Shown: positions 3,095 through 61,790, numbered from the stretch's first letter. The stretch: 64,000 nucleotides of DNA from Yuukianura sp. NJ FZ-2021 (GCA_046563655.1 CM102286.1:12028001-12092000), one strand, 5' to 3'. Program-made: numbers and translations. Notes: generated by a model from the letters alone, not told the origin.

Positions 3095-3580
3095 AAGAAT
3101 GGTGCAGCAAGTAAAACCTAAAAGTGGAATTTGTGCAGGAGGAAAACGAACAAGTGGAATGTGTGTAGCTGAAAAACCGAAAAGTGGAATTTGTGCAGCA
3201 CAAAAACCAAAAAGTGGTCCGTTGTGCATCTTGAAAGCTAAATATTTTGAAAACGTACAACATCGAAAACCGAAATGTTTGAGAATGTGCAATACAAAAA
3301 ACACAAAAGTAAGCAGGTGCACATTGCCAATAACCCAAAAGGTATCATTCGTGCAGCAAAAATGGAAAAGGTTGGAAGTTTACAATGCACAATTTAAAGT
3401 TTTTGGAATTGTGCAATGTGAAAAACTGAAAACCTGTGTCCGTCAACCAAAAGTTTACGGTGTGCAACCTAAAAACCCGAAGGATGGTAGTTGTGCAACC
3501 CAAAACCCCAAAAAGTGGACTTTGTGCAATGTAAACACCTAAAATGTGGAATTTGTGCAATTTAAAAATACAAGTATCGT
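3095..3580. repeat. Degenerate ~30-bp minisatellite
   Basis: Units such as AAAGTGGAATTTGTGCAGCACAAAAACCAA recur at 30-bp period (3121, 3151, 3181, 3211, ... 3541). Confidence 0.85.
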
Positions 3581-26340: not shown

Positions 26341-26984
26341 CAACTAAAGCGTCAGTAGCGAAACCTTACAAGGAGAAAACACATTTTTTGATGGAAATGG
26401 TAGCTATTTACTTGAATTTGAAGCAAAATGACTATTGTAAATGTGAACATCGTTTTCGATTTTTTTTTCTTCTCAAAAACCTTTTAACTGAAAAGTTACG
26501 AAGTATTAGAAACTAGAGGAGATAAAATGATTTATTGTTGACACTCAAAACCTAGTTGGCTGCTGTTCGGAAGGAGCGGCGAGACTCATATTTTCACCAA
26601 AAGTTTCCTTCCATGTCAATTTCATGATCCAAATCGCCTCGAAAACTTTTTTGGAATTGAATCAAAAGGTGTCTGCGCATGACCATAAACAGAAATTTCT
26701 GCTTTTCAGTTTCAGATTAGCTTTCAAATCTGTTCTCGCTCAGTTTTCACTTTGTAATTTTCATGCATAGCTTTGATGCTTTCACTTTCTAACAAAACTT
26801 TTAACAACTAGAATTTCACAGCATATATTCTATGTTTCTCTATTTATTCAGTGTGCTCGCGCTCGCTCATCATCAAAAAATTCTTAGAACAAGAAAAGTT
26901 TTGTGTTTGAGTTGCTTTTCGTGTCTTTTAAAGCTGAAATTTTGTTCTATTTTTTAGAAATACTTTTTTGAAAGTTAGGCTTAC

Positions 26985-27866
26985 CAGGAAATAGACGCCG
27001 AAAGGCATGACAGCAGCAGCTACAAGAAGATCTGCCACGGCCAAGCTTACAATGAAGTAGTTAGTGACGTTTTGAAGCGATCGTTCCCGCTTAACGCTGA
27101 GTATCACCAGTACATTTCCGAAAACTGTAAAAAGCGGGAAGACGAGGAGCAGTAGAGCCCAGTAGTTCTTGGCTGTCACTCCTCCGCCAAGGTCAGGTTC
27201 GGTACAGTTAGTAAAGTTATCATAGGTCGTTAGATTGTTGTCCAGGAAGTAGGAGCAGGTCTCATTGAGTGACTCATTAAGAGTAAGTGGGAGGCTAAAT
27301 GGATCTTGCTCTTGGACAAACCCACTCCCAAAGTTTTTGAACCAAGAGGCAATTCCAGAAACATCTACAAATTGTGCCTCTGTAGTACTGGAGGATGAAA
27401 AAGTACTGGAGGTTGAGTATGTAGCAGCAGAAGTGGATTGGTTTCCAGTGGTTACATTCTGGATCAAATGTTTTAGGGAATCGAATGTCGTTGAATAAGT
27501 CGAAACTGGAGATTCCGAAACTTCTGGCGGTGAAGAAGACAAAGTTGAACTAAAGTTGGAAAAGAATGTGGCCGTAACCGAGGAGACAGTTGTGTTTGAC
27601 TCGAGGTCGTCAGTGACAATAGTTGTTGACATGTCCATGTCACCGTCACTGTAGTTTTGGGTAGTTGATACATAATGGTCGTAAGTCGCTGAAACGGTAG
27701 TCGTCATTGATGTTCTGATTGGTTGGAAACGGTCAAACAAGCTTCCAGTAGACGTCGCTTGTTCAGTTGTGTAACTGCCACTGTCAACTGTGTTCTGCAT
27801 CAGTTCCAGCGATGACGCCAGCAGTCCGTTGTCTGTCGTAGATTCCATTAAGTTTTTAGTAGTCAT
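26985..27866 (-). CDS. Dop2R: Dopamine D2-like receptor (class A aminergic GPCR), first coding exon: long N-terminus, TM1, TM2
   Basis: [62 protein letters not shown] matches the D2-like TM1-TM2 signature (GNx[19 protein letters not shown]); phase-0 donor CTG|GTAAG at 26985/26984; in-frame stop upstream of ATG 27866. Subtype call from recalled motifs. Confidence 0.85.
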
Positions 27867-30537
27867 GAACTGCTTCGACGCTGCTGTTTTAACATACTTT
27901 GAAGTCCTATTTTGGCAACCCTTGTTCTAAACACTACCACTTGCGTTGTAGTTACAACAATGTTGATAGGAACTCAGCGGGAGGTGAAGTTTAGTGGCCA
28001 ATAGAATTGCACGACGACAGTTTCCATAAAGTCATGTCTTCCGCAAGCCAAAAACTTGGCAGAAAGAAGGCTCTCTTCGCCCGTCCATCTCTATGAATGT
28101 CACTCTGCTGCTGTTTCTGTTTACTTTTCTGGAGTGTTTCCGTGTAGTTAAGGACAGGCGAAGTCTTGTTCCCTTCCGCAGCTCCGCTGAGATTTTTCTT
28201 CTTTCAAAAAAGTTGGAGAAAGTTTTGAGCGGGAAAGTCTGAAAAGAACGTTAGACGTTAGAAAATGAAAGCAAGAGAATGTCAGAAGAAGGATTTTGAT
28301 TACATAGAGTGCTGGGTCAGAGGGCATAGAAGAAAAGTTGAACAAATTCAACTTTCTTTTCCAACTTTTCCAAATCTAAAAGTACGAGTGTTTACATAAA
28401 TAAAAGGCGTCATGGGCTTTTCCAGCAGGAGTTAGAGACAAAATGTGACTGACAATCTCTAGGCGCATACTAATTTTCTAAAGACGCTACAACGAAGAAG
28501 AGGATGGTCCTGAAGCAACATGAGACAACCATCTTAATTTCCGTCTTCCATTTGTCTATGGGTCGAAACTACAACTTCCGCTCCTTCCAGGCCTGTCGTT
28601 TCTTCCAGCGCAAAAGCTAATTGTGCACTCTCGGAAGGCGGAAATCCTTATCAAAAACGCTTTGGACATTGCCGCTCCTTTTCTTGTTTTCAAAAACGGC
28701 ACGAGGAGGAGGTCACATCCGCATTTCAAGCCTCATTCCAATGAATTACCCTTACAAATGTTTAAAATGTTTAAAGAAGACGTTAGCAAAAGAATAGCAA
28801 AAAGAATTCGTTTTCGTAAAGATTTCTTTTTAAATGCTTTAGTTTTAGACAAATCGAAAATGCAAAACCAAAACTTACAACTCTTCAGCATGTTTTCAAA
28901 TTTTTTTAATCTTTCGGAAAATGGTTTGGAGAGTTTCAACTTTTTCAAATTGGTTTGAGTTTTTGACTTTTGGTTAAAAAATGATGTACAAAATTAACTT
29001 CAAAACAATGACTGCTTTTGTAAGTTGGAAACTGGCAATTTTTTGAAACAGTTTCATTGTTACAACATTTTTTTTCACAGAAAGTTCGTATGATTTTAGA
29101 ATGAGAAATCGCAATAGCCTACACTCACTTCGAAGCAGCCGGTACATGTAATTTCAGTTGAAAGGAATATAAAATCCAGTTGGATTTAAGCATATTGGGC
29201 TCCCATTCATAAGAAGAAAAAAAACGAAATTTTTGTTCAAAATTCAAAAAATAAAATGCCCGAAAACGTCTTGTGCAGCCTGAGAGATCGATTTTCTTTT
29301 TTGGTGGTGTGGTAGTGATCTCATTGTTTAAACAAAAGGCTTTCAGCACTACACTCTTCTTTCTGTTCTTGTGTTGAAGACGATGGAGTCTGAATAAATC
29401 CATAACTTTTCTCACAATTTTTTTCTTCCAAAATTATGCACTTTCGTTCTTGACATGACATTTTCTTCTGCTATTTATGCAGAAGGAAATGGAGGCTCAA
29501 TTGAGCTTTTTCGAAACCACTTCCAACATAACTACGATTTGGAATTGTAAGGAGAATGATTCTCATATTAGGCACAGATTAGCATTTGGCTTCAATTTTC
29601 TCGGCAATTTAAAACCACTTCTAGAAAAAAAATGGAATAATGAAAACCGATGCACGCTTCGTTTTTTGTTTTGGAAAAATTCAATACTAGTTATCACAAA
29701 ATTGGCTGGTGATGGACAAGTAATCGATTACTACTCAACGGTCACTGTCATTGGTGTGATATGAAAAAGCATAATAGGAAGGTCATGTCATTTGATTTCA
29801 CTTTAATAAGGAACAAAAGCAGCAGCAGTAGAGAACGTTGGAGAGAAAGTTAAATAGGACTTGAATAATATAGAAGCGAATTGAGTGGGCACACTTATGC
29901 CAAAATGTTATGGAGAAAACTGACAGGACGAAGATGGATGGATTTTTTTTCAAATCCAACCGAGAAATATAACTTTTTTTTTCTTCCATATGTATTTTTT
30001 TCCAAACTGTGTAGAAGGAAATAAAAAACGTGTCGAAAAATTGTGCACTATTTTTTTGTACATACTAATATGATGTAACGTATCAGTTTTTAGAAAATAG
30101 TAACGTCAGTTTTTGGAGAATGGTAAGAAAATTGACCTAAAAGAACCTCATTGCTTGTAGTTAAATATTTTCAAAATCTTATTTTTTCAACTAAACATGG
30201 ACGAAACTTTACGAATTTCGTAAAACTATCGTTCATTTTCTATGCATATTTTTTTAACTCATCGGTTGGAAATTCACAAAAAAAGACGACCATATTTTTA
30301 ACGAACTGAAAATACTTTAGACTAGCCAAACTTAAAATATTCTGCGCATTTTAATTAAGTTTATCAATTAAATTGATTAAGTCGCCAGGAATTAATTTCA
30401 CACATTGAAATGTATTAAGTCTAACATTTTATGTGGAAAATCTAACTAAATTAATATTAACTGGTCGACTGTTAATTACCTATTAACTTAGCTTAACCTC
30501 GACGTAGCGTCCACTTGAAATCTATGAAGCAACACCT

Positions 30538-30545
30538 TATAAATA
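30538..30545 (+). promoter_or_regulatory. TATA box of peptide gene 1 (equivalents at 31861, 33196, 34194, 35526)
   Basis: TATAAATA about 80 bp upstream of each ATG; TCAGT initiator about 29 bp downstream in copies 2-5. Confidence 0.85.
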
Positions 30546-30615
30546 CTTTAAGTCTAACTAAACTTAAGCAAGAAGAAAACAAAACTAACCAAACCGGTAT
30601 TACAAAACTTTGACA

Positions 30616-30947
30616 ATGAAGTCGTTGTTTATCATCGCTGGGATTGCGGCGATCGTTGCCTTTATGCATGTCGCCGAGTCGGAAGGTTAGTGAGGCAAAA
30701 AAGAAATTCCAAAATTTCTCCCATATAATGCTTTAGTATGTTCCAAATAAAAGTTCAATAAGTTTTATATGATTCTCAACAACTCTATTCATTAGGCGCC
30801 TGCCCTCAGATTGACAGGACCGTACCGTACATGTGTACAAAGGAATTCCAGCTTTACCATTGCAACAATAAAGCCGAATTGGCTTGCAGTGCCAACGAGG
30901 AGTGCTGTCAAGACCAATGTTATAAGTACCGGTGCTACCCCAACTAA
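30616..30947 (+). CDS. Secreted 8-Cys WAP/crustin-like peptide, copy 1 (73 aa); exons 30616-30685, 30796-30947
   Basis: MKSLFIIAGIAAIVAFMHVAESEG-ACPQIDRTVPYMCTKEFQLYHCNNKAELACSANEECCQDQCYKYRCYPN; signal-peptide-like exon 1, phase-1 GT-AG intron, AATAAA downstream. Confidence 0.9.
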
Positions 30948-31944
30948 ACCAACCAAAACAAAATATGCTATATCTGCATGCAAAAATTCTAATAAAATGT
31001 TGAAGAAAAATTAACTTCTCTACGAGAATAAGTGAAGCTGTGTCCACGTTTAAGTTGTCTTTACCGTAAAAGAGTTTGATGAAATTAACGTAGGTTAACC
31101 AATATGCACTGAATTTGCGAAACATAATGTGACCCCCTACAGTGAAAGCCGTGAAACATATCGGAATATTCCGTTGTTAGAAAAAGGAAAAGTAAAATTG
31201 CAGGAGGATTTGTTTACTTTTTGAATTTCAATTCTCATAAATAACAGCAAAGAGAAATTGCAATTTCAAAAGTCAGTGAAATTATTCAGTTCATCAACCA
31301 AAAGTTCACGTATATGCAAAATTCCAAATTCCAAAAATCCTAAAGGTGGTACTGGTGCAACGTAAAAACCCGAAAGAATACGCATGTTCAATGTAAAAGC
31401 CCGTCAAGTGAGTGCAATTTAAAAACCCGGAAGGTGGTAATTATATAATCTAGAAAATATAATATTGTTAACACAACGTATGGGCACAGAAATTAACACG
31501 ATGAAAATGCGGATTGTGCACAATTGTTTTTGAAATTCAACACATTGGTAGAGAAATTCAGAAAAAAAAGTTCGCCCAAATATTTTTAAAAACTGAAAGT
31601 GTTGCAAGAGGTATGATGAAGTTAGACAAGTTGCCAAACTTAAAACATTCTGTATAGTTTAATAAAGCTAGTCAATTTAATTGATTAAACTGCTTTGGAA
31701 TTGATTTTGCACTATGGCAAATTATGTGCACGTGCTGATTTCAACGTATTTGTCTAGTAAACCTAACCTAATTAATAGTATATGATCTACTGTTAATTGC
31801 CTATTAACTTTTAGCTTAACCTCAACATTGCATCCACTTTAAATCTATGAAGCAGCACGGTATAAATATTTTAAGTCTAACTATTCTTCAGTAAAAAGAA
31901 AATAAAACTACCTAACCAAACCGCGGTATTGCAAAACTTTGACA

Positions 31945-32278
31945 ATGAAGTCGTTGTATCTCATCGTTGGAATTACGGCGGTCGTTGCTTTTATGCACGT
32001 TACCGAATCGGAAGGTTAGTGAGCCAAAAAAAAATTGCATTTCTTCCGCATAATACTTTAGTTTCATTGTTCAAAGTAGAATAAAAGTTGAATAACTTTT
32101 AAATGACTAACGATTTTATTCATTAGGCGCTTGCCCTCAGTTTGACACTGGCACTCGACGAATTTGTACAAAGGATTTCCAGCGTTACCATTGCAACAAT
32201 AAAGCCGAATTGGCTTGCAGGGATAACGAGCAGTGCTGTCCAGATCGATGCAACAAGTTACGATGCTACCGCAACTAA
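31945..32278 (+). CDS. Secreted 8-Cys WAP/crustin-like peptide, copy 2 (73 aa); exons 31945-32014, 32127-32278
   Basis: MKSLYLIVGITAVVAFMHVTESEG-ACPQFDTGTRRICTKDFQRYHCNNKAELACRDNEQCCPDRCNKLRCYRN; same exon structure. Confidence 0.9.
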
Positions 32279-33277
32279 ACCAACCAAAACAAAATATGTT
32301 ATATCTGTATATAATCAAAAATTCTAATAAAATTAATGAATTCGTGAAAAATTTAACTGTTCTTCGAGAAAAAGTGAAGCTTTTTCTACATTTAAATTGT
32401 GTTTACCGTAAAAGAGTTTGATAAAATTAACATAAGTTAGCTAATGCACTAAATTTGCCAAACATAATGCGACCCTTACAGTGAAAGCCGTGAGGCATAT
32501 CAGAATATTCCGTTGTTAGAAGAGAAATGTAAAATTACAGGAGGATCTTTTTACCTTTGGAATTTTCAATTCCCATAAATAACAGCAAAGAAAAATTGCA
32601 ATTTCAAAAATTATTCAGTCCCTCAACCAAAAGTTCAAGTATGCAACCCAAAACCCCTAAGGTGGTACTGGTGCAACGGAAAAACCCGAAAGATAGTGCA
32701 TGCTCAATGTAATAACCTAACCTGTCAATTGGCATTTGTGAAATTTAAAATCTCAGAAGGCAACAACTATGCAATTTAAAAAACTTAATATTGTTAACAT
32801 ATGGTCCCAGGAATTAACACGACGAAAATGCGGACTGTGCAGAATTGTTTTTGAAATTCACCACATCGGTCGGAAAATTCAATAAAAAAGAGTTTGTCCG
32901 AATATTTTTAAAAACTTAAGGTGTTGCAAGAGCTGCGATGAAGTTAGACAAGTTGCCAAACTTAAAACATTCTGCGCATTTTAATTAAGCTACTCAATTG
33001 AATTGACTGAACCGCTTGGTAATTGATTTCGCACAATGGCCGATTATTGGCATGGGCTGATTTCAATGCATTTCTGTAGTAAACCTAACTAATTAATAGT
33101 GATCTGCTGTTAATTGCCTATTAACCTAGATTAACTTCAACACATTGCATTGCAACTGAACATTGCATCTACTTGAAATATATGAAGCAACACCGTATAA
33201 ATACTTTAAGTCTAACTGACCTTCAGTAAGAAGAAAATCAAACTGCCAAATCAGAGCAAAATTACAAAACTTTGACA

Positions 33278-33623
33278 ATGAAGTCGCGTTTTTTCATCTT
33301 CGGAATTGCGGTGATCGTTGCCTGTTTGCACGTTGCAGAGTTGGAAGGTTAGTGAGCCAAAAAAATAGATTGAAAAATTTCTTCCGTATTATACTTTAGT
33401 ATCATTGTTCAAAATAAAAGTTCAATAACTTTTACATGATTCCTAAAAACTTTGTTCATTAGGCGCCTGCCCTGAGTATGACAGAAAAATGCCGCGCATG
33501 TGTACGGTGGATTCGCAGGTTTACAATTGCAACAATAAAGCGGAATTGGCATGCATTGCCAACGAGGAGTGCTGTTACGATGAATGCTACAAGTACCGGT
33601 GTTTCCCCAGTTACCCCAACTAA
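33278..33623 (+). CDS. Secreted 8-Cys WAP/crustin-like peptide, copy 3 (76 aa); exons 33278-33347, 33463-33623
   Basis: MKSRFFIFGIAVIVACLHVAELEG-ACPEYDRKMPRMCTVDSQVYNCNNKAELACIANEECCYDECYKYRCFPSYPN; same exon structure, 3-residue C-terminal extension. Confidence 0.9.
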
Positions 33624-34281
33624 ACTAAATAAAATATGCTATATTTGAATACAGATCAAAAATTCTATTAAAACGTTGATGAAAAATTAACTTCTCTACG
33701 AGAATAAGTGAAGCTTTTTCCACGTTTAAGTTGTCTTTACCCTACAAGAGTTTGATGAAATTAACATAGGTTAACTAATATGCACTGAATTTGCCAAACA
33801 TAATGTGACCCCTACAATGAAAGCCGTGAGACATATCGGAATATTCCGTTTTTAAAAAAAGGAAAAGGAAAATTGCAGGAGGATATCTTTACCTTTTGAA
33901 TTTCAATTCTGAAAAAACTGAAAGTGTTATATTGCAAGAGGTATGATGAAGTTAGACACGTTGCCAAATTTAAAACATCCTATGTAGTTAAATAAAGCTA
34001 GTAGTCAATTTAATTGATTAAATTGCTTTGGAATTGATTTTGCACGATGGCAAATTATGTGCACATGCTGATTTCAACGTATTTTTGTTGTAAATCAAAC
34101 CTAATTAATAGTATATGCTCTACTGTTAATTGCCTATTTACTTTTAGCTTAACCTCAACATTGCATCCACTTTAAATCTATGAAGCAACACCGTATAAAT
34201 ACTTTAAGTTTACCTAATTGTAAGTTTCAGTAAGAAGAAGTTAAAACTACCTAATCAAAGCGGTATTACAAAACTGTGACA

Positions 34282-34612
34282 ATGAAGTCGATATTTTTCA
34301 TCGTTGGGGTAGTGGCGATCGTTGCCTTTATGCACATTGCCGAATCGGAACGTTAGTGAGCCAAAAAAATGCATTTCTTCCGCATAATACTTTAGTTTCA
34401 TTGTTCAAAGTAAAATAAAAGTTAAATAACTTTTACATGATTAACGATTTTATTCATTAGGCGCTTGCCCTCAGTTTGACACAGGCACGCCGCGCATTTG
34501 TACGAAGGATTTCCAGCGTTACCATTGCAACAATAAAGCCGAATTGGCTTGCAGTGATAACGAGCAGTGCTGTCCAGATCGGTGCAACAAGTTCCGATGC
34601 TACCGCAACTAA
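34282..34612 (+). CDS. Secreted 8-Cys WAP/crustin-like peptide, copy 4 (73 aa); exons 34282-34351, 34461-34612
   Basis: MKSIFFIVGVVAIVAFMHIAESER-ACPQFDTGTPRICTKDFQRYHCNNKAELACSDNEQCCPDRCNKFRCYRN; same exon structure. Confidence 0.9.
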
Positions 34613-35607
34613 ATCAATCAAAACAAAATATGCTATATCTGTATATGATCAAAAATTCTAATAAAATGATGACTTCGTAAAAAAATTAACTGTTCTACTA
34701 GAAAAAGTGAAGCTTTTTCTACATTTAAATTGTCTCTAACGCAAAAGAGTTTGATGAAATTAACATAAGTTAACTAATGTGCACTGAATTTAAAAAAAAA
34801 CATAATGTGACCCCTACAGTGAAAGCCGTGAGACATATCGGAATATTCCGTTGTTAGAAAAAGGAAAAGTAAACGTACAGGAGGATCTTTTTACTTTTGG
34901 AATTTTCAATTCTCATAAATAACAGCAAAGAAAAATTGCAATTTCAAAAATTAGTGAAATTAATCAGTCCATCAAACAAAAGTTCAAGTTACAACCCAAA
35001 AACCCTAAAAGCGGTACTGGTGCAAAGTAAAAACCCGAAAGATAGTTCGTGTTCAATGTAAAAACCTGTCCATTGGCATTTGTGTAATTTAAAAACCCAG
35101 AAAGCAATAACTATGTAATTTGAAAAATTTAATATTGTTAACGTATGGACCCAGGAATTAACACGATAAAAATGCGGACTGCGCACAATTGTTTTTGAAA
35201 TTCAACATATCGCATCGTTCGGAAAATTCAATAAAAAAAAGTTCGCCCAAATATTTTTAAAAGTTAAATGTGTTGCAAGAGCTGTAATGAAGTTAGACAA
35301 GTTGCCAAACTTAAAACGTTCTGTGTATTTTAACTAAGCGAGTCAATTGAATTAATTAAACCGTTTTGGAATTGATTTCACACAATGGCAGATTTTTGGC
35401 ACGTGCTGATTTCAACGTGTTTCTGTAGTAAACCTAAGCTAATTAATAATGATCTACTGTTAATTGCCTATTAACTTAGCTTAACCTCGACATTGCATCA
35501 GCTTGAAATCTATAAAGCAACACCGTATAAATACTTTAACCGTAACTAACCTTCAGTAAGTAGAAAATAAAGCTACCAAATCAGAGCAATATTACAAAAC
35601 TTTGACA

Positions 35608-35939
35608 ATGAAGTCGCTTTTTTTCATATTCGGAATTGCTGTGATCGTTGCCTTTATGCACGCTGCCGAGTCGGAAGGTTAGTGAGCCAAAAAAATAAAT
35701 TGGAAAATTTCTTCTATAGTTTACGTTAGTATCATTGTTCAAAATAAAAATAACTTTTACATGATTCCTAAAAACTTTATTCATTAGGCGCCTGCCCTGA
35801 GTATGACAGAACCATACCGCGCATGTGCACGGCGGATTTCCAGGTTTACCATTGCAACAATAAAGCGGAATTGGCTTGCGGTGCCAACGAGCAGTGCTGT
35901 CAAAATGAATGCTACAAGTACCGGTGTTTCCCAAACTAA
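35608..35939 (+). CDS. Secreted 8-Cys WAP/crustin-like peptide, copy 5 (73 aa); exons 35608-35677, 35788-35939
   Basis: MKSLFFIFGIAVIVAFMHAAESEG-ACPEYDRTIPRMCTADFQVYHCNNKAELACGANEQCCQNECYKYRCFPN; same exon structure. Confidence 0.9.
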
Positions 35940-38900
35940 ACCAACCGAAACAAAATATACTATATTTGTACACAGATCAAAAATTCTATTAAAACGTTGA
36001 TGAATTCGTGAAAAAATTAACTGTTTTACAACAATAAGTGTAGATTTCTCCACGTTTATGTTAAGTCATTACCATGAAAAAGTGAGATTAAATTCACCTA
36101 GGTTAACTATAAAGCTCTGTATCATTTGCCAAACATAATGTGGCCCCAAAAGTGAAAGTCGAGAGACTTATTGCAACGTTCCATTGTTACAAACAGGAAA
36201 AGTGAAAGTGCATGAGGATCTACTTCCTTGTTGAATTTTGAATTCTCATAAATAACAGCATGGAGAAAGTGCACTTTCAAAAGTATAAAAGAAAATCAAT
36301 TTTCAAACCTTTCGCCAAAATTGAACAACATTTCAGTACTTTGTATTTTCAACTCGTTAAATTTGAAAGTATCCTGGCGCGTCAGGGTCTATACTGCGCT
36401 GTGTACAAGTTGCACTGTTAATGCAAATCTCAAACAAATCAAAAACTTCTCCTAACCTGTTTTTTGCACATTTCCTGCAACGTAATACGCATGTATTAAC
36501 TTTTTATAAATTCAATAATTGTAGCTCAAACGAAATAGAACAAATCAGCAACTTGGGTTTTTATGAAACATATGAGTAAGTTTAAAGAAATTTTTTTTAA
36601 TTGCACAAAAAAAAAACTGGTACTGGGTGAAATTCTAGAAAAGAACCGAAAACACCGAAGTAAGCTTGGTTACATATTGTTTGACTTTGTCAAAAATTAT
36701 CGACTGTCTGAGAAAAATCAGTTCTAAACATGATCCTTGATTGCGATTCTGTTCAAACAAAGTTTCAACTTGAAAAATTAGGTTGTCAAGAACCATTTAG
36801 GTTCCATCTTGAGCCTCGGCAATCTCGTAACAAATGAACCAATCAGCCTCCTACATAACATCTAAACTCTATGATCAATTTCCCTTTGCCTCACTTCACA
36901 TTATGTTCCAAGACATTCAACTTAAGGCATCAGTACACTTAAGTTTTGTGGTAGAAGCAGGAGGGTTTGAGCATAATGAATACGAGAATAGTACTATACT
37001 TTCCCCTTCACTGCTACTTACGACTACTTGACTTTCTGACTGAAAGCTACTTCAGATGTTAAATGGAACGAAAGGAAGAAAATGCTTTCCTGTTGCTAAT
37101 AAAAGTCTATTATATCCATAGTCTTTTTTCACTTCAACTTTGACATGAAACAAGTGGAAAGATTTTCTTTTCAAATACTAGGTTTGATTTAACAAACTTA
37201 TTTTGACTCTTCAAGAACAACACGACCCTCCCATCGTGCTCTTTTAAGTGTCGTTCTGTTCAAAAAATCATTTTTTTTAGATTTGCTTTTCTTTTAGTCT
37301 TTTAGACTTTCTTTCTTGAGCTTTCTTTGACTTGTTGGTTAAAGCACCCGAAGCAACCGAGTCTTTAGCCTTTGCTTTCTCCTTCTTTCGACACATCAAA
37401 AGCTTCTGAAAACATGAATTTAGAAAAGACGGCGCGACGACTAGAAGAGATGAAGACTAGACGCTGAATAGACTCGGACAAAAACCACTTTTCATGCATT
37501 TATGTCTCTGCTTTTCTTCAAAAGGAGATTTTCATGGTTTACTATCCATCTGTAGACGGATTTGGTTCAAATCTTGACAGATGTGTTAAAGGCTCAAATT
37601 CAGAGGCCATAACTCTTCTCCGAGAAGAACTCGTTCGAGTTTACGTTAGGCTAAAACCTTTAAGTTAGGTTTATGTTAGGCCAAAACCTTTAGGTTATGT
37701 CTCAGCTCTCAAAAAAAAAATTTGGCAAATGGATCCTTTGACTCTTGAAAAAAAAAAGCGGCGGACGTTTGTCGTTTCCAAGATTTGAAATGTTCGTGAA
37801 ATCTAGGAGAAAATGCGTGGACAGCCTTTTCTACTTTGTGTAAATCTTCCACCGCTGCAGTGGCAATGAAGGACATCACTCCCTAGGCTAGGTTAGGCCT
37901 AACTCAACCACGGAATAAAAAAAAAGACGAAAACCATTGGAAATTCAAAGAAGCGGAAGGAAGGAAGCTCCTCGCGCCGGACTTTCTCCTTGACGTTCAT
38001 GTCCAATAAATGTATTGTACGTGCCAAAGGCTTTTTTGAGACTTCAAAGTCACCCGACACAGTCCGTTTTTTCGCCACCAAATCTCCCGCATGTCATTTA
38101 TCATCGATAAAAAGAACATCAAAAAACAAACCGAACAGCTCCTCTCCACCGAATCGGCTTTTCCCGAATCAAGTTTCATCAAACTTGTAAAGTTTTCTTT
38201 GTATTCTCGCCTAGGCACGAATGATGTTCCTGCTTCCTTCCAATTTCAAAATAATTCAGTTATTTTCTTTTTGTGAAGTTCTTATTAAAGAAAACAGAAA
38301 ACATCTTAACAAAGTTCAAGAATGATAAATATTGACCCAAAGCTTTCATTAGAACAAGAGAAACCAAGAGAAACTTGAAGGGAGTACTTGATGCTAAAAT
38401 AAGTAAAAGTGGTGATTTTTAAATTTTTTTTTCTAAATTTGAAAATTCTTGTGAAGAAAATTTATCTAGTTTTGGTGGTAATACTTGGACAAGAATTTAA
38501 AATTTATTATTCATACTAGCCGCATGTTCTGACATGTCTTCCTGTACTGTTTCTTTCTACGGTTTCTTCTTATACTGTGTTATTAATAGGCATTGGGGAA
38601 AACGAGAGAGAAAGCAGCTTGAGAACAAACCACCTGTAGTAAACAGATTCTAAAAAAAAACTAGAGGAAGCCTAAAAAGCGGCATTTCCATTCCAAACCG
38701 AGCTGCATCCGGTTCATTTCTCACCCATTAAATTTTGACAAAATGGTGCCCCGTTTATTTAAATTATTTTCAAGCCTCCCCGCTTTTCGTATGTATGGCT
38801 TTGGTTGAACGTTTCAACATATTTTGTTTAAAAACTTTCTCTTTAAACAGAATTTTTAAAGAAATTATTATGTCGAATCGATTAAGAACGTGGAAATCTT

Positions 38901-52300: not shown

Positions 52301-54019
52301 TATGAAATCGCCTTTTCTACTTTTTAAAAATGGCAAACATTGTATGCAATCAATCCAACTTACATCAAATGTGTACATGCCGGAGTCCAGTCTGGTTTGC
52401 ATTGCCCTCCCATTTCAACCGCTTTTCGGCGAAGTGTACTTCTAAAAGGATTTTCAAATCCACTCAATACGAACACGACGTCGTCGAACAATTTGTGAAA
52501 TGGTTTCCCCGATGTCGTTTTAGACTTGACTGGAGCTTTTGATTTAGCAGCCACATTTGGAAGAGCTGCGGTGGCGGTGGAAGAGGACGGTTTGCTGGAC
52601 ATGGTTTGTTTATGGCTACTGGACGTGGACAGTAAAGGAGAAGTGGATGGCTTCGGAGATAAATGTTGTGCTAGTGCTGTAGAAGCATGTGGAGAGTGGA
52701 TTTTAGTTTTCGCGTCTGTCTTATTTCCAGTCACCGAAGCATTGAATGACCAAATAGGAGATTGACCACCTGAGTCTGCCAATGGAGTAAATTGATGCTT
52801 AGTAGTTGCAAGTAAAGGACCTGCAGAAAAATGATTGTAATTTACAAGTGAATTTTCAATTATACAAGAACTAATCGTAAGTGGAAGTGGAGTAAGGCCC
52901 AACGCCGCTAACCATTTTTAGTCGGAGTGTTGTCAACCTTAGAGGAACAAGTTGTGGTCAAGTCCTCCTTTGACTGCAATGGTGGAGGTAGGGAAGTGGT
53001 ATGTCCTGTTCCACGAGTCTTAGATAAAGGAGGAACTGATGTTGTCCGGATCGCCGCTGCAGGGGAAGCTGCTAACCGGGAATTGGAAGTCGTAGGTGGC
53101 GATTTGGCTCCTGCAAATAAATCCGAAATAAACAAGTTGCCTTAAAGGAATTTAAGAGGATAACTGAATAGAATAATGAGTACACTTCCCTATTTCCAAA
53201 TTAAAATTCATACCTTTTGCGTCGTCTGCAGCCGCCATCCTCTTAGCGAAGAAACTCCCGATACGAATCGGATCTGGATTAACGGCGGAAGAATCAATAT
53301 CCTCAGTTGCGGTGTTCAACACGCGGAATTTTCCAATTGTAGAACTATTCGGATGTGACGATGGGTCTGCCTGGATAATAACATTAATGAAAGATATACC
53401 ATACTGAATTCGACGATTAAAAGGTTGGATGCAGGAGATTTTGATGAGATCCCATTTTTCCGCTGCAACTGATTTAACAAGGCTACTCGAAAACATCTTT
53501 ACTCGATTCAGATTCGTTTCTTCTTTAGATTCAGTCACGCTCATGAATGCAGTTTGATTTTGAATTACCTGCAGAACAAAAAATTACCGAACTGAACAAC
53601 GAGCGCTAGATTTCATAAAAGTAACAAGGAAACTACCGGAAATCAATAATTAATCTTACATGGAATTCTTGATTTGTTCCACCGGATCGAGACACGGAGA
53701 TTTCAATAAATGCAGATCCTTCATTCCCAATATCTAGTGACATGATTTTTTCAACTTTATCCAATTGAATGATTACGAAAGCCTCCTTCTCTCCAGCTTC
53801 CCGACATTTCCATTTCCGGAAAGTGTCCGGCTTCAATAAATTACTCGCCGGATGGTTCTAAATAATTAAACACGACTAAAATTAAAATATTCTCACTTTA
53901 TAACTTCCAACAGTTTACTAATAATAGTAGTAGTAAATCAAGGTAAATAGAATAGAACGTCTTACCGGATCCTCACTGCTGAAACTGCAAATACAGTTCA
54001 ATGGTGCCTTGCAGCTCAT
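49353..54019 (-). CDS. XRCC1: DNA repair protein XRCC1; exons 54019-53966, 53857-53660, 53568-53214, 53110-52913, 52820-52364, 51871-51752, 51414-51221, 51133-51043, 50741-50472, 49681-49603, 49463-49353
   Basis: N-terminal domain (FSSEDPNHPASNLLKPDTFRKWKC...LDIGNEGSAFIEI), BRCT1 (VVFVLSGFENPFRSTLRRKAVEMGGQCKPDWTPACTHLICAFVNTPKF...W), acidic linker, BRCT2 (DFF...VNYIVTW...NPNAEIVQARWIETC); GT-AG junctions with compatible phases. Confidence 0.93.
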
Positions 54020-54377: not shown

Positions 54378-54784
54378 GATAGATAATGATGATAATTAAA
54401 CCCTACTCCAACCGGTACTATTTTATTCTTCTACCGCGCGCGCGATCGTATAAAATGAACAGCTGATTATGGCAACATGGTAAGGGGACAAAAAAACAAA
54501 AATACTAAAGTACTAGTATTCAGATTTCAGATCGGAAAAAGATAGACTAAACCCATTTTTAAAATTCTTTTCCAGGTTATTTGGAGTAATACTTCAAACA
54601 ACAAGTCAGCGACATAGTACAACTAACGAAACTCGTAGAGCTGCTTGTTCCGTTTTTGAGCATCAAGGTCCTTAACACAACACATATTCATATCTAAGCG
54701 TTAACGACTTTTCTGACGGGGATTGAATGGTTTACAATTTCAGGACGGACTGAATTGATCTCCAGTCCAGTTTACGGACCCAAT

Positions 54785-55306
54785 ATGGCTGAAACAAGAC
54801 CCGTACCAATTCCGGGGAAAGTTGCCGCCATTAAAATTCCCTGCAACGGAGAGCGTGGTGCTTTATTCATTCCAGTGGAAATTGATGAAAATGATCCTAT
54901 TTTCACGGATGAAGTGGGCTTCACGGCGCCGGTGTCCCGGAAAATAGAACTACCTCTGCGCATGCGCAAGTGTTCGTCTTCAGATAAGCGTGGATTTGAG
55001 CGTGCTGCTCTGGATAACCAAGTTGCTACATACTTGATGATTGAAACTGGGTCGGGATTAGCCAAAATGATTTGGCAAACTAATGTTGGGACTGTGATTG
55101 TAGCTCGAGAGGATAAGAAACCATTGTCGGAGGAACACTTGGAGGCATTTTGGAGCTACAATTCGGCTCTTCTAGATCGATATGGCGACGACGATTCGGA
55201 CAGCGTTGAGAAGTCTATTACGCAAGTCAACTTTGGGAAGTTTTTCAAGTACAACTACAATCGACCGAGAGCCACCGACTTCGTTGAAGAGTGGAACAAA
55301 GCTTGA
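54785..55306 (+). CDS. Uncharacterised 173-aa protein, paralogue A (uninterrupted ORF); resembles a domain of fungal MYND-finger-associated proteins
   Basis: Open ORF MAETRPVPIPGKVAAIKIPC...LDNQVATYLMIETGSG...WQTNVGTVIVAREDKKPL; codon-wise conservation with the adjacent paralogue; AATAAA near 55469. Family resemblance recalled, not searched. Confidence 0.8.
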   Translation: MAETRPVPIPGKVAAIKIPCNGERGALFIPVEIDENDPIFTDEVGFTAPVSRKIELPLRMRKCSSSDKRGFERAALDNQVATYLMIETGSGLAKMIWQTNVGTVIVAREDKKPLSEEHLEAFWSYNSALLDRYGDDDSDSVEKSITQVNFGKFFKYNYNRPRATDFVEEWNKA

Positions 55307-56505: not shown

Positions 56506-57065
56506 ATGGCCGAGACCAAACCTTTACCCACTCCAGGGAAAGTTGCCGCCATTAAGATTCCTTGCAAGGGGAGCGCGGTGGAATTTCAGTGAAGTGTGGT
56601 GAACTTCCAGCGAATGCATTCATTCCTGTGGAAATTGATGAAAATGACCCGATTTTCAGGCAGGCTGGCTTTACGGCACCGGTGTCCAAGAAAATAGGAC
56701 TACCTCTACGCATGCGAAAGTGTTGGTCTTCGGACGACCAGGGTTTATACCGGAATGGGGTTGATGACGTTAATCAAGTTGCTACATACCTTGTGATTGA
56801 AACTGATTCGGGAATAGCAAAATGGACGTGGCAAGATGATGTTGGGACTGTGATCGTAGCACGAGAGGATAAGAAGCCATTGTCAAGGGAGCATCTGGAA
56901 GTATTTTGGAGCTACAATAAGTATCTTATTTATCGATATGGATACGGGGATTTTAGCAGCGTTGACAACTCCATCACGCTTGTCAACTTCGAGAAGTATT
57001 TCAAGTACTACAATTGCAAGCGACCAAAAGCTACTGACTTCGTTGAAGAGTGGAACAAAGCTTAA
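56506..57065 (+). pseudogene. Paralogue B of the 54785 gene with a 1-bp frameshift (pseudogene or sequence error)
   Basis: ATG 56506 gives MAETKPLPTPGKVAAIKIPC, then the frame shifts at the G run 56568-56571 (stop TGA 56590-56592); the homologous remainder is open in another frame to 57065. Confidence 0.7.
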
Positions 57066-58146: not shown

Positions 58147-59167
58147 ATGTCTGGAGTTCCTGTGATTACCGATTTTGGGCCAGATTCAGGTGGAAGAATA
58201 AAGGTAAAACAAAAATTCTCACCGTTCACCGACGTTTTGTTACAGCGTTCTTTGATAAAATAAATATATGCTTCGTGTAGAATTTAATCGTCTGTCTATG
58301 CGTTGCAGGGTGTAACAATAATCAAGCCAGTGGTAGTTGGAAATGTTGCCAAGTATTTTGGAAAGAAGAGGGAAGAAGATGGACACACACATCAGTGGAC
58401 TGTATATCTGAAACCATTCGAGAACATCGATTATTCACCTTTCATTAAGAAAGTTCAATTCAAATTGCATGACAGTTACGCCAATCCAACCAGGATTGTC
58501 ACAAAGCCTCCTTATGAAGTAACGGAAACGGGTTGGGGTGAATTCGAGATCAATATAAGAATCTACTTGAATGATCCGACAGAGCGACCAGTAAGACGTA
58601 CACGAATAGAATATTTTGTTGAAACATAGAAAAATTCTTCCTTCTTTGTATTTAGATAATTCTAAGCCATGTTCTAAAACTGTTCCGCACTGGGACAGAC
58701 CCATCGACAGAGAATCTTAGTAAGAAGCCACTAGTTACGGAATCCTATGACGAACTCATTTTCCAAGATCCAACAGCACTGCTGAAGTCTCTCTTGGATG
58801 ACGTGAAACCACTTACTTCGGGGCCTTATTTTCATGAAACAAATTGTAAGACATATTCTCCGCATGAGCCATAACTTTTTAAAATACGTTGCTTAATTAA
58901 GGTTCTGTTGTTTGTCTTCGAACAGTTGAAGAGAAGAAGGCCCAATCGAAGGAAGAGATTCTGAGAGCCAAATCAAAGCTACGTTCTGAGATCCAGACAT
59001 TAAAAGCTAAACTTGAATTATCGAAAACAACAATTCAAAACTTTAAGGCCGCCATTGCCCTCGCTTCTTCAAAAGCTGATTCCCAACAGCCATCGACATC
59101 TGCTTCTGCGGCAGTAGTATCGGAGGGTTCCTCAGCAGTTGTAGCACGTGATCCCGTCCCTAAGTAA
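58147..59167 (+). CDS. YEATS4: YEATS domain-containing protein 4 (GAS41); exons 58147-58203, 58309-58590, 58656-58845, 58926-59167
   Basis: [47 protein letters not shown]...[15 protein letters not shown]...YDELIFQDP plus a C-terminal coiled-coil-like segment; canonical splice sites. Confidence 0.96.
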
Positions 59168-60100: not shown

Positions 60101-61790
60101 ATGGCCTTGTTAAAACTTCTTAGGTTGTTCATGTCCGTGATGCGTCCAAAGAAAGGACGCACGGAATATTCGGGTCTCGTATTCGTCAGAAACGCCATCC
60201 TGATAGGCTTCTACTTTTGTTCGTCGATAGGTCTTACTTTTTTTCAAAACCATCTTCTCCAGGTTGGTTTTAAAATTATTATAAGTGTTACGCTTACAAA
60301 CCGACATTATATTGATGGCCAGTTCTACCATTGCAGGTTAAAGTTAAACGGAGTTTAGTGCAAACTAGTTCCACCTTTAAACTCAATTAACTTAATTATG
60401 CGTCAATTAATTTTGTCATGCAAGGTATCAAAATTCTTGTATTCCTCCGCCGGTTAAAGTCCGGTTAAATTTAACCGGCCGATTTTCTCCAGTTAAATTT
60501 TTTAATCTCCGGTTAAATATTTAAACTCCGTTAAAACTTAACCTGCAATGGACGAACTGGGCATGAATGTTTCATTGATTATTGTTTCCTATTCCTAGCA
60601 AGTCAAGTTTCCGCTGTCCATTGTGTGCTGTCATTTGTTATTGAAGTTTCTCATCTCCGGTTTTCTGAGATTGTGTTATGTTCTGTTGTGGAAGAAACAT
60701 CGCGTCACATTAGATGCTTGGACATGGTTTTCAAAATTGTGCCTAGTCGGCGTCAGTTCGGGGTGAGTTTTTCCTTTTCTAAAAAGAAATACTAAACAGC
60801 ATATACAAGTTGAATCTATTTCCATAATTTCGTTTTCAGCCTCGACATCGGGCTGTCTAATTGGGCGTTGGAGCTGGTCTCTGTTTCACTGTAAGTCCAT
60901 ATTTGAAAACGATTTAATTAACCTAAGTGCAATGTGTATACTAAAGGATTTTGTTTTGATGCTGCAGGTACACCATGACCAAAAGCACTGCCGTCATCTT
61001 CATACTTCTCTTTGCACTCCTGTTTCGTTTAGAAGAGCGACACTGGAGTAACCTTCTGATAGTCGGCCTAATTTCCGGAGGTCTGACTATGTTTACGTAC
61101 AAAAGCACTCAGTTTCACGTGATCGGTTTTCTGCTGGTCCTTGCTGCCAGTGTTTTGAGTGGATTCCGGTGGTCAATGGCTCAACTAATTCTACAAAAGA
61201 GTAAACTGGGCTTGGAAAATCCTGTTGACATGATTTACCATATTCAGCCTTGGATGCTCGTAGGAATAATTCCATTTGCAATGTATTTCGAGGGTCCAGC
61301 TCTGATGAAGTTGAGCCAAGGAGACATGTCGGTTGAACAGCTCAAGTTTGGAGACTGGCACGGAACGGGTGAAGAGACATCATACTTTATACTTGAATCA
61401 ATCCTGATTGGTTCACTTATGGCGTTCTTCATGGAGGTTGCAGAGTACCTTCTAGTCACTTTCACGTCAAGCCTTAGCCTCGCCGTTACGGGAATATTCA
61501 AGGTAAACCTATAAAATCATTGACGCAGATCGCATTGCTGACATTTCTTTTGTGATGTTATTTTTCAGGAGATTTGTACTATGGTGTTGGCTGTGATATT
61601 CAATAAGGATCCATTGTCACTGATTAATTTGTTTGGACTTCTTCTTTGTCTCTCTGGAATCACTGCTCATCTTGTGAGCAAGACGATGCGAGGGGGTGAA
61701 CATCTCACCAAAGAGATGGACAGCGATGAGACGTTTATGCTAGAGGAGCACGATTTTCCACTTCTAAATGGCGATTCCGACCAGGACTGA
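60101..61790 (+). CDS. SLC35C2: Solute carrier family 35 member C2-like nucleotide-sugar transporter; exons 60101-60262, 60599-60762, 60840-60890, 60968-61502, 61569-61790
   Basis: SIGLTF, FPL, GLDIGLSNWALELVSVSLYTMTKST, SGFRWSMAQLILQKSKLGLENPVDMIYHIQPWM, TSSLSLAVTGIFKEIC. Start codon uncertain (60101 or 60131). Confidence 0.92.
60317..60562. mobile_element. MITE in the first coding intron of SLC35C2
   Basis: About 40-bp TIRs CCAGTTCTACCATTGCAGGTTAAAGTTAAACGGAGTTTA / TAAACTCCGTTAAAACTTAACCTGCAATGGACGAACTGG; internal CCGGTTAAA repeats. Confidence 0.85.

Follow-up and report, generated by a model that had tools for sequence, protein, structure and literature searches.

Five predicted tandem genes for secreted eight-cysteine peptides with a WAP-like cysteine order in Yuukianura sp.

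Peptides built around a single WAP domain, i.e., Type III crustins (SWD), waprins, elafin and SLPI, consist of a signal peptide followed by one eight-cysteine domain of about 50 amino acids. The Type III crustins act as inhibitors of subtilisin, trypsin and proteinase K, and antibacterial activity has been described for some of them (PMC9680087, cited here and below from excerpts of its text). In a stretch of 64,000 nucleotides (nt) from Yuukianura sp. NJ FZ-2021 (CM102286.1:12028001-12092000; hereafter the window, with positions counted from its first base), we describe a tandem array of five predicted two-exon genes, each encoding a peptide with this same general architecture. Our preferred reading, based on DNA sequence, is that these are five functional paralogous genes for lineage-restricted, fast-evolving secreted peptides with four disulfides and, probably, a divergent single-WAP-like domain. 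The reading is tentative, and taken as a whole we put it a little short of an even chance.

The predicted architecture matches that of a crustacean Type III crustin, in which a signal peptide precedes a single bona fide WAP domain, except that the domain in the array peptides has a sub-threshold Pfam score. Like the Type III crustins in the excerpted account, the array peptides carry no Gly-rich or extra Cys-rich region (PMC9680087). They differ from single-WAP peptides in that all five are sub-threshold for Pfam, with seven residues between the third and fourth cysteines (C3-C4) and ten between the first and second (C1-C2). They also lack a Pro/Arg-rich N-terminus, three of the five are anionic, and a helix is predicted at the place of the binding loop. 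Type I and II crustins form secreted, cysteine-rich multigene families like the array, and a WAP-like C-terminal domain is possibly common to both. However, the same excerpts give them a 12-cysteine signature (a four-cysteine region plus the WAP domain) and a Gly-rich region (PMC9680087), neither of which occurs in the array peptides, which have eight cysteines and whose mature start is the start of the domain. The absence of a crustin-type Gly-rich or Cys-rich N-terminal region, noted in the original prediction for this locus, agrees with our gene models.

The MgCRP-I peptides of Mytilus are a parallel of another kind. In the sections of PMC4558851 used here, they form a multigene family of restricted taxonomic range with an invariant cysteine scaffold in a fast-evolving mature exon, and with a phase-1 intron in or adjoining the part that encodes the signal peptide, all as in the array. 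However, they have six cysteines, a dibasic pro-region and four exons (PMC4558851), whereas the array genes encode eight cysteines and no pro-region in two exons, and the two families have no sequence relation.

The five gene models are listed below. The TATA boxes, with the sequence TATAAATA, and the poly(A) signals, with the sequence A[AT]TAAA, come from motif scans, and the eight-cysteine matches from a six-frame regular-expression scan; pI is the isoelectric point of the mature peptide.

Gene 1: 30616..30947, plus strand; exon 1 30616-30685, intron 30686-30795, exon 2 30796-30947 (including the stop codon); 73-residue precursor, anionic mature peptide, pI 5.6; TATA box 30538..30545; eight-cysteine match 30801-30935; poly(A) signal AATAAA, 30991..30996
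Gene 2: 31945..32278, plus strand; exon 1 31945-32014, intron 32015-32126, exon 2 32127-32278; 73 residues, cationic mature peptide, pI 8.7, charge about +3.8; TATA box 31861-31868; eight-cysteine match 32132-32266; poly(A) signal AATAAA, 32326-32331
Gene 3: 33278..33623, plus strand; exon 1 33278-33347, intron 33348-33462, exon 2 33463-33623; 76 residues, anionic, pI 4.8; TATA box 33196-33203; eight-cysteine match 33468-33602; poly(A) signal ATTAAA, 33667-33672
Gene 4: 34282..34612, plus strand; exon 1 34282-34351, intron 34352-34460, exon 2 34461-34612; 73 residues, cationic, pI 8.5; TATA box 34194-34201; eight-cysteine match 34466-34600; poly(A) signal AATAAA, 34660-34665
Gene 5: 35608..35939, plus strand; exon 1 35608-35677, intron 35678-35787, exon 2 35788-35939; 73 residues, anionic, pI 5.6; TATA box 35526-35533; eight-cysteine match 35793-35927; poly(A) signal ATTAAA, 35988-35993

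Exon 1 is 70 nt long in all five genes, so that the intron is in phase 1 in every case. The introns (110, 112, 115, 109 and 110 nt in genes 1 to 5; 73-77% A+T) are of the GT..AG type, with the donor GTTAGTGAG and, before a G, the acceptor TTCATTAG at all five loci. In gene 4 the donor has AAC before the GT, not AAG, and the split codon 24 encodes Arg, not Gly. The start context (...gacaATGAAG) is identical in all five genes, and exon 2 ends with a conserved AAC or AAT followed by the stop codon TAA; the gene 3 peptide has an in-frame C-terminal extension of three residues. Because the frame of exon 1, if unspliced, reaches a stop after two codons, and because the exon 2 frame contains no ATG, splicing would be needed to translate the cysteine domain.

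The TATA box lies 78-88 nt 5' of the ATG in all five genes. Genes 2-5 have an initiator-like motif, TCAGTA, 27-33 nt past the start of the box, while a motif scan for TCAGT upstream of gene 1 did not find one. When the 300 nt upstream of the five copies were aligned, mean column identity was 78%, and there were conserved AT-rich TAATTG/TAATTA blocks. The A[AT]TAAA signal lies 44-49 nt 3' of the stop codon in every copy. The original prediction of five intact two-exon genes, each with a TATA box, a signal-peptide exon and a phase-1 intron, was thus borne out at all five loci.

It could be argued that the array is a true DNA duplication but that its genes lack, or have lost, expression and function, i.e., that they are neutral young duplicates or a mis-modeled part of a larger gene. 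Consistent with this, substitution divergence in the exons (0.193) is no lower than in non-coding DNA (0.166), gene 1 lacks the initiator-like motif and the donor of gene 4 is weakened. However, all five frames are intact despite nucleotide divergence of up to 28% in exon 2, and none of the five has lost any of the eight cysteines, its start or stop codon or either splice site, though exon 2 identity falls to 72%. Indels have been kept out of the exons: we counted no gap events in the 70 columns of exon 1 and one, an in-frame event of 9 nt, in the 161 columns of exon 2, against seven in the intron (120 columns), 14 in the 5' flank (337) and 18 in the 3' flank (356). This amounts to a single in-frame event in 231 exon columns versus 39 events in 813 non-coding columns. 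Variable columns numbered 36 of 73 at third codon positions and 24 and 25 of 73 at the other two. By the method of Nei and Gojobori, the ratio of non-synonymous to synonymous divergence (dN/dS) over the whole coding sequence was 0.24-0.52, i.e., below 1 in all ten pairs. The exons also differ in GC content from their surroundings (0.488, versus 0.341 in the array and 0.363 across the window). Finally, since a separate promoter and poly(A) signal accompany every unit, the two exons are not an internal pair belonging to a bigger gene. We regard the idea of non-functional or mis-modeled genes as very improbable, and on sequence grounds the case for five real paralogous genes is convincing.

Read without splicing, the longest open reading frame (ORF) from either exon is at most 61 codons. 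It is plausible, as originally stated, that the ORF track called none of the five. Standard ORF and gene callers miss such genes because every coding exon is tiny, and tiny two-exon genes often go unannotated. On the minus strand, Cys-rich ORFs of 147, 112 and 131 residues overlie genes 1, 2 and 5 (window 30733-31176, 32064-32402 and 35581-35976), while those over genes 3 and 4 reach only 71 and 63 residues. We considered these antisense ORFs as genes and dropped them: their length and cysteine count vary from copy to copy, and their frames span the intron, which is rich in indels. Though probably spurious, they would be the ORFs displayed by a simple track in place of the genes.

All five predicted precursors begin with an MKS n-region followed by a 14-residue hydrophobic core (mean Kyte-Doolittle hydropathy 2.5-3.1), and cleavage sites obeying the -3/-1 rule occur after residue 22 in four of the five and after residue 24 in four of the five. 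The products look secreted, with a predicted signal peptide of about 20-24 residues; no pro-region or dibasic site follows it. The mature part starts G/R-A-C-P and, counted from Ala25, is 49 residues long (52 in gene 3), which agrees with the 49-52 residues originally proposed; the mature domain of gene 1 (window 30795-30944) translates as GACPQIDRTVPYMCTKEFQLYHCNNKAELACSANEECCQDQCYKYRCYPN. The spacing C-x10-C-x8-C-x7-C-x5-CC-x3-C-x4-C and the invariant NNKAELA loop between C3 and C4, on which the original prediction had been built, were found in all five peptides. Of 50 mature positions, 26 are the same in all five peptides, the entire C-NNKAELA-C block among them; the variable residues cluster in the C1-C2 loop, in the C2-C3 segment and at a few sites near C7. 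The eight invariant cysteines would be expected to form four disulfides in the mature peptide.

The DNA that encodes the C-NNKAELA-C block (window 30861-30887 and the homologous sites of genes 2-5) is also conserved, with 25 of 27 bases identical in all five copies, most synonymous positions included; the exon around it is variable at 37% of columns. This may reflect constraint at the nucleotide level or a small conversion tract.

Is the domain a WAP domain? The order of the cysteines, C-C-C-C-CC-C-C within about 40-50 residues, is that of WAP in all five peptides, and the C-terminal half (C-x5-CC-x3-C-x4-C) fits the WAP arrangement C4-x5-CC-x3/4-C-x3-6-C, again in all five. WAP (PF00095) was the single Pfam family matched by all five peptides, over profile positions 3-38/39 of 41. 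A formula for shrimp crustin WAP domains, CX5-9CX6-31CX5CX5-7CCX3-4CX3-6C, fits all 34 domains considered in the excerpted part of PMC7401287, and the C2-C3 (8), C4-CC (5), CC-C7 (3) and C7-C8 (4) spacings of the array peptides fall within it. A C2-C3 spacing of 8 is also that of inhibitory human WFDC domains (PMC11408880, again from an excerpt).

A series of other observations weighs against membership. In HMMER searches the peptides scored 11.6-14.5 bits against PF00095 (E = 0.044-0.36), all five falling below the gathering cut-off of 20.8 bits, so that the expected Pfam assignment failed; two of them scored slightly higher for the unrelated Fer4_RLI (E = 0.011 and 0.02). The sub-threshold WAP score probably carries nothing beyond the cysteine layout, the non-cysteine positions scoring negative. 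If so, the Pfam match is not independent of the cysteine spacing that was noticed initially. The C3-x7-C4 spacing violates the x5 present in all 34 shrimp crustin WAP domains of the excerpt, so that the claim of an atypical seven-residue loop held, and C1-x10-C2 lies beyond the 5-9 range of the formula (PMC7401287). The C3-C4 loop of the array peptides also contains no Asp/Asn-containing motif. The PROSITE four-disulfide core (4-DSC) signature has Asp or Asn at this place. A profile of the five peptides matched no chain in the PDB at E <= 10, and a search of the PDB with a single peptide yielded seven matches, all antibody light chains by chance (E = 0.16-1.5).

Predicted structures gave no match to a WAP fold. 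Two AlphaFold (AF2) models, each made from the five-sequence alignment, were of low confidence (pLDDT 71.3 and 63.1). Both have a β-hairpin over the CC...C8 segment (residues 35-40 and 44-49), where the WAP hairpin sits, and both have a helix at residues 16-22/24, in the C2-C3 segment. In inhibitory WAP domains this segment is an extended binding loop, and a helix there is not known as part of the WAP fold, in which the disulfides connect C1-C6, C2-C7, C3-C5 and C4-C8. Foldseek searches of the pdb set with the two low-confidence models gave no match at E <= 0.001; the 54 and 23 weak rows contained no WAP structure and were hairpins of EGF, follistatin and granulin. With the same models, VIA-align gave none of 48,161 chains at Z >= 2 and none of 52 re-aligned chains. 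Neither low-confidence model matches any WAP structure; because the models are weak (pLDDT 71 and 63), they have little force either way on the question of the fold.

These results bear on another explanation, according to which the secreted genes are real but their domain is an independent, taxon-restricted four-disulfide fold (a helix plus a C-terminal hairpin) whose WAP-like cysteine order is coincidental, serving as a gland toxin, a reproductive or seminal-fluid peptide, or a signaling ligand. The tests for WAP with Pfam, the PDB, Foldseek and VIA-align all failed or gave no clear result, and the helix at 16-22/24, in both low-confidence models, is not known as a WAP element. Language-model features pointed to no WAP cluster, and to one unnamed cluster of which 14% of members are Toxin_12; these atlas scores, however, lie within the range of shuffled sequences. 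Conserved AT-rich, homeodomain-type sites, with no κB or GATA pattern upstream, would fit constitutive, tissue-specific expression, and fast-changing loops on a conserved scaffold are typical also of toxins and reproductive proteins. There is a precedent in mussel MgCRP-I, which the excerpts of PMC4558851 describe as having a toxin-like cysteine pattern, a different disulfide organization and no activity found. On the other hand, a full-length match of eight cysteines, together with the G-x-C-P start and the C-x5-CC-x3-C-x4-C tail, is hard to distinguish from WAP, and the AF2 models are too weak for a claim of a new fold. We know of no other family with the same cysteine order and spacing. An independent fold is a serious possibility, though well below an even chance.

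As to the fold itself, we lean slightly towards a diverged WAP-like origin over an unrelated one. The WAP-like label in the original prediction holds for the cysteine order, the G-A-C-P start and the C4-x5-CC-x3-C-x4-C tail; it does not hold for homology, the Pfam link being sub-threshold. The WAP/crustin label is at present an analogy of cysteine layout, and membership is not established.

We also looked for relatives, in collections made up mostly of prokaryotes and metagenomes with some eukaryotic proteomes, their coverage of animal genomes and transcriptomes not being systematic. A word-indexed search of 5.8 billion clustered proteins with the five-peptide alignment returned no candidate relative. 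An hmmsearch of 1.84 billion cluster representatives gave three matches at E <= 0.001, which we rejected as spurious, since they were partial and lay in repetitive mucin-WxxW or Sushi/LRR proteins of 1426-2100 residues. Pattern matches in contigs (274 in metagenomes, 106 viral and 98 in prokaryotic genomes) included none that was confirmed by tblastn, and a degenerate DNA pattern for C-NNKAELA-C had no match in metagenomes. In the ESM Atlas the top scores (0.77-0.78) went to unnamed clusters of 30-33 residues, within the range given by shuffled sequences, and the named clusters contained no usable match. A full-text search of the literature with short motif strings gave an unrelated word match only. 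The family is without a described relative in the collections searched, and we infer that it is taxon-restricted. The claim of an undescribed, lineage-specific family thus stands as far as no described relative was detected, within the limited reach of collections dominated by prokaryotes and metagenomes.

If the array does encode functional, divergent single-WAP-like peptides, each gene would be transcribed from its own TATA (plus initiator) core promoter, and splicing of the single phase-1 intron of about 110 nt would give a pre-peptide of 73-76 residues. Removal of the signal peptide would then leave a mature peptide of about 50 residues with four disulfides, i.e., a WAP-like domain in which the C1-C2 loop has been enlarged to ten residues and the C3-C4 loop to seven. 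The invariant cysteine scaffold and the Y-x-C-NNKAELA-C block would form a rigid core, and the hypervariable C1-C2 and C2-C3 loops would touch an extracellular target. In elafin and SLPI, the C2-C3 loop is the protease-binding loop. By analogy with single-WAP peptides, the target would most likely be a protease, either microbial or endogenous, or the surface of a microbe, possibly both.

Some observations do not sit easily with an inducible defence role. Membrane-active antimicrobial peptides are not usually anionic, as three of these five are. In the 330-nt upstream regions a Rel/κB-like motif was found in none of the five and a GATA motif in one (weak evidence, from an arthropod-style consensus only), and an inducible promoter of the type seen in insect antimicrobial-peptide genes was dropped from consideration on these counts. 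Given the anionic members, the absence of κB-like and the rarity of GATA motifs, and the helix predicted where a binding loop would lie, a classical role as inducible antimicrobials should be proposed with caution.

We next consider how the array arose. A blastn search of the window with unit 2 delimited the tandem array and its five head-to-tail units, as follows.

Array: 30325..36282, plus strand, five head-to-tail units
Unit 1: 30325-31618, plus strand, 78.2% identity to unit 2
Unit 2: 31600-32940, plus strand, the reference (100%)
Unit 3: 32922-33909, plus strand, 78.6% identity to unit 2
Unit 4: 33932-35284, plus strand, 87.8% identity to unit 2
Unit 5: 35271-36282, plus strand, 78.5% identity to unit 2

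The units are 1.0-1.35 kb long, and unit 3 is missing about 330 bp of spacer relative to the others. The six-frame scan of the 64 kb window found the eight-cysteine pattern five times, all on the plus strand (from 30801 to 35927), and nowhere else. A tblastn search of the window with the gene 1 peptide led back to these five loci, with E = 1e-36 to 7e-23; the next-best match had E = 1.3, so that there is no sixth copy or relic in the window. Other Cys-rich open frames in the window were scanned as well and yielded no additional candidate gene.

The closest pairs in exon 2 are genes 2 and 4 (94% identical) and genes 3 and 5 (88%), and the flanks agree. These pairings, with their matching flanks, imply that an older split into two types was followed by duplication of a block of two genes. 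Along the array the pI values (5.6, 8.7, 4.8, 8.5 and 5.6) fall into alternating anionic and cationic classes, and duplication of such a block would have generated the alternating anionic (genes 1, 3 and 5) and cationic (genes 2 and 4) forms. The alternation of charge classes suggests diversification of targets.

A more specific explanation would be that anionic and cationic neighbors work as a two-component pair, e.g., as a heterodimer or as an inhibitor and its partner, and that this accounts for duplication of the block. The strict alternation of pI along the array is in line with it, as is the duplication of a B-A block implied by the 2+4 (94%) and 3+5 (88%) pairs. However, the alternation follows automatically from a single block duplication, with no need of functional coupling, each peptide has an even number of cysteines, which presumably pair with one another inside the molecule, and alternating charge is by itself insufficient to claim binding. 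We consider functional pairing of this kind very unlikely indeed.

Mean pairwise p-distance was 0.193 in coding and 0.166 in aligned non-coding sequence, a difference that was not significant (bootstrap 95% confidence interval -0.009 to 0.065); it was 0.192 in exon 2 versus 0.129 in the intron (interval of the difference 0.003-0.125). At codon positions 1 and 2 it was 0.163 and 0.177, comparable with the non-coding value of 0.166. Half of the residues are frozen, and yet these two positions have diverged like non-coding DNA; residues in the free loops must therefore change at a rate at least equal to the neutral one. The pattern fits diversifying selection on the mature exon, of the sort described for mussel MgCRP-I (PMC4558851), which five sequences are too few to show; gene conversion that homogenized the non-coding parts would yield the same picture.

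A bolder proposal combines several of these elements: a new, taxon-restricted mini-protein fold (a C2-C3 helix, the NNKAELA loop and a stapled C-terminal hairpin), WAP-like by cysteine order alone, with diversifying selection on the mature exon and with alternating-charge partners that have distinct or cooperating targets. We think this unlikely, though not far-fetched.

If expressed, the five genes would constitute an unannotated family of secreted disulfide-rich peptides, and families of this kind are the usual source of invertebrate antimicrobial peptides, protease inhibitors and toxins. The paralogs would provide a natural panel for studies of structure and function, with a common scaffold, hypervariable loops and two charge classes. 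A seven-residue C3-C4 loop in a WAP-like domain would broaden the accepted spacing rule for four-disulfide cores. Otherwise the finding is of modest biological consequence, since arrays of lineage-specific cysteine-rich peptides are common (e.g., MgCRP-I, in the excerpts of PMC4558851).

Within the window, but outside the array, a 138-nt stretch at 3438-3567 is 74.6% identical to part of the array spacer (e.g., 32618-32750). It sits amid repetitive PKSG-rich ORFs on both strands, and every array unit seems to contain a dispersed repeat.

Several other genes were found in the window.

26928-27926, minus strand: first coding exon of a rhodopsin-family G-protein-coupled receptor (7tm_1, E = 7e-12), aminergic-type
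52360-53583, minus strand: XRCC1 (XRCC1_N, E = 2e-19, plus BRCT)
54698-55306 and 56556-57065, plus strand: paralogous pair of long ORFs, 65% identical over 168 residues, both ending ...ATDFVEEWNKA
58288-58629, plus strand: YEATS4/Gas41; identity to database proteins does not exceed 89%
60960-61514, plus strand: TPT/SLC35-type transporter

Rfam gave nothing at the gathering threshold. A search for relatives of the N-terminal ORF of XRCC1 had no match, while YEATS4 had 680 relatives, with 66-81% identity alike to named proteins of molluscs, springtails, annelids, other arthropods and vertebrates. The modest best identities of these neighbors suggest that the animal lineage is thinly represented in protein collections. 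The ORFs at 54698-55306 and 56556-57065 matched no Pfam family at E <= 0.01 save one sub-threshold MIB_HERC2; this pair may be a second tandemly duplicated gene. The receptor has a long extracellular N-terminus, rich in Ser/Thr and in N-glycosylation sites, and its first two transmembrane segments presumably resemble those of a D2-type dopamine receptor.

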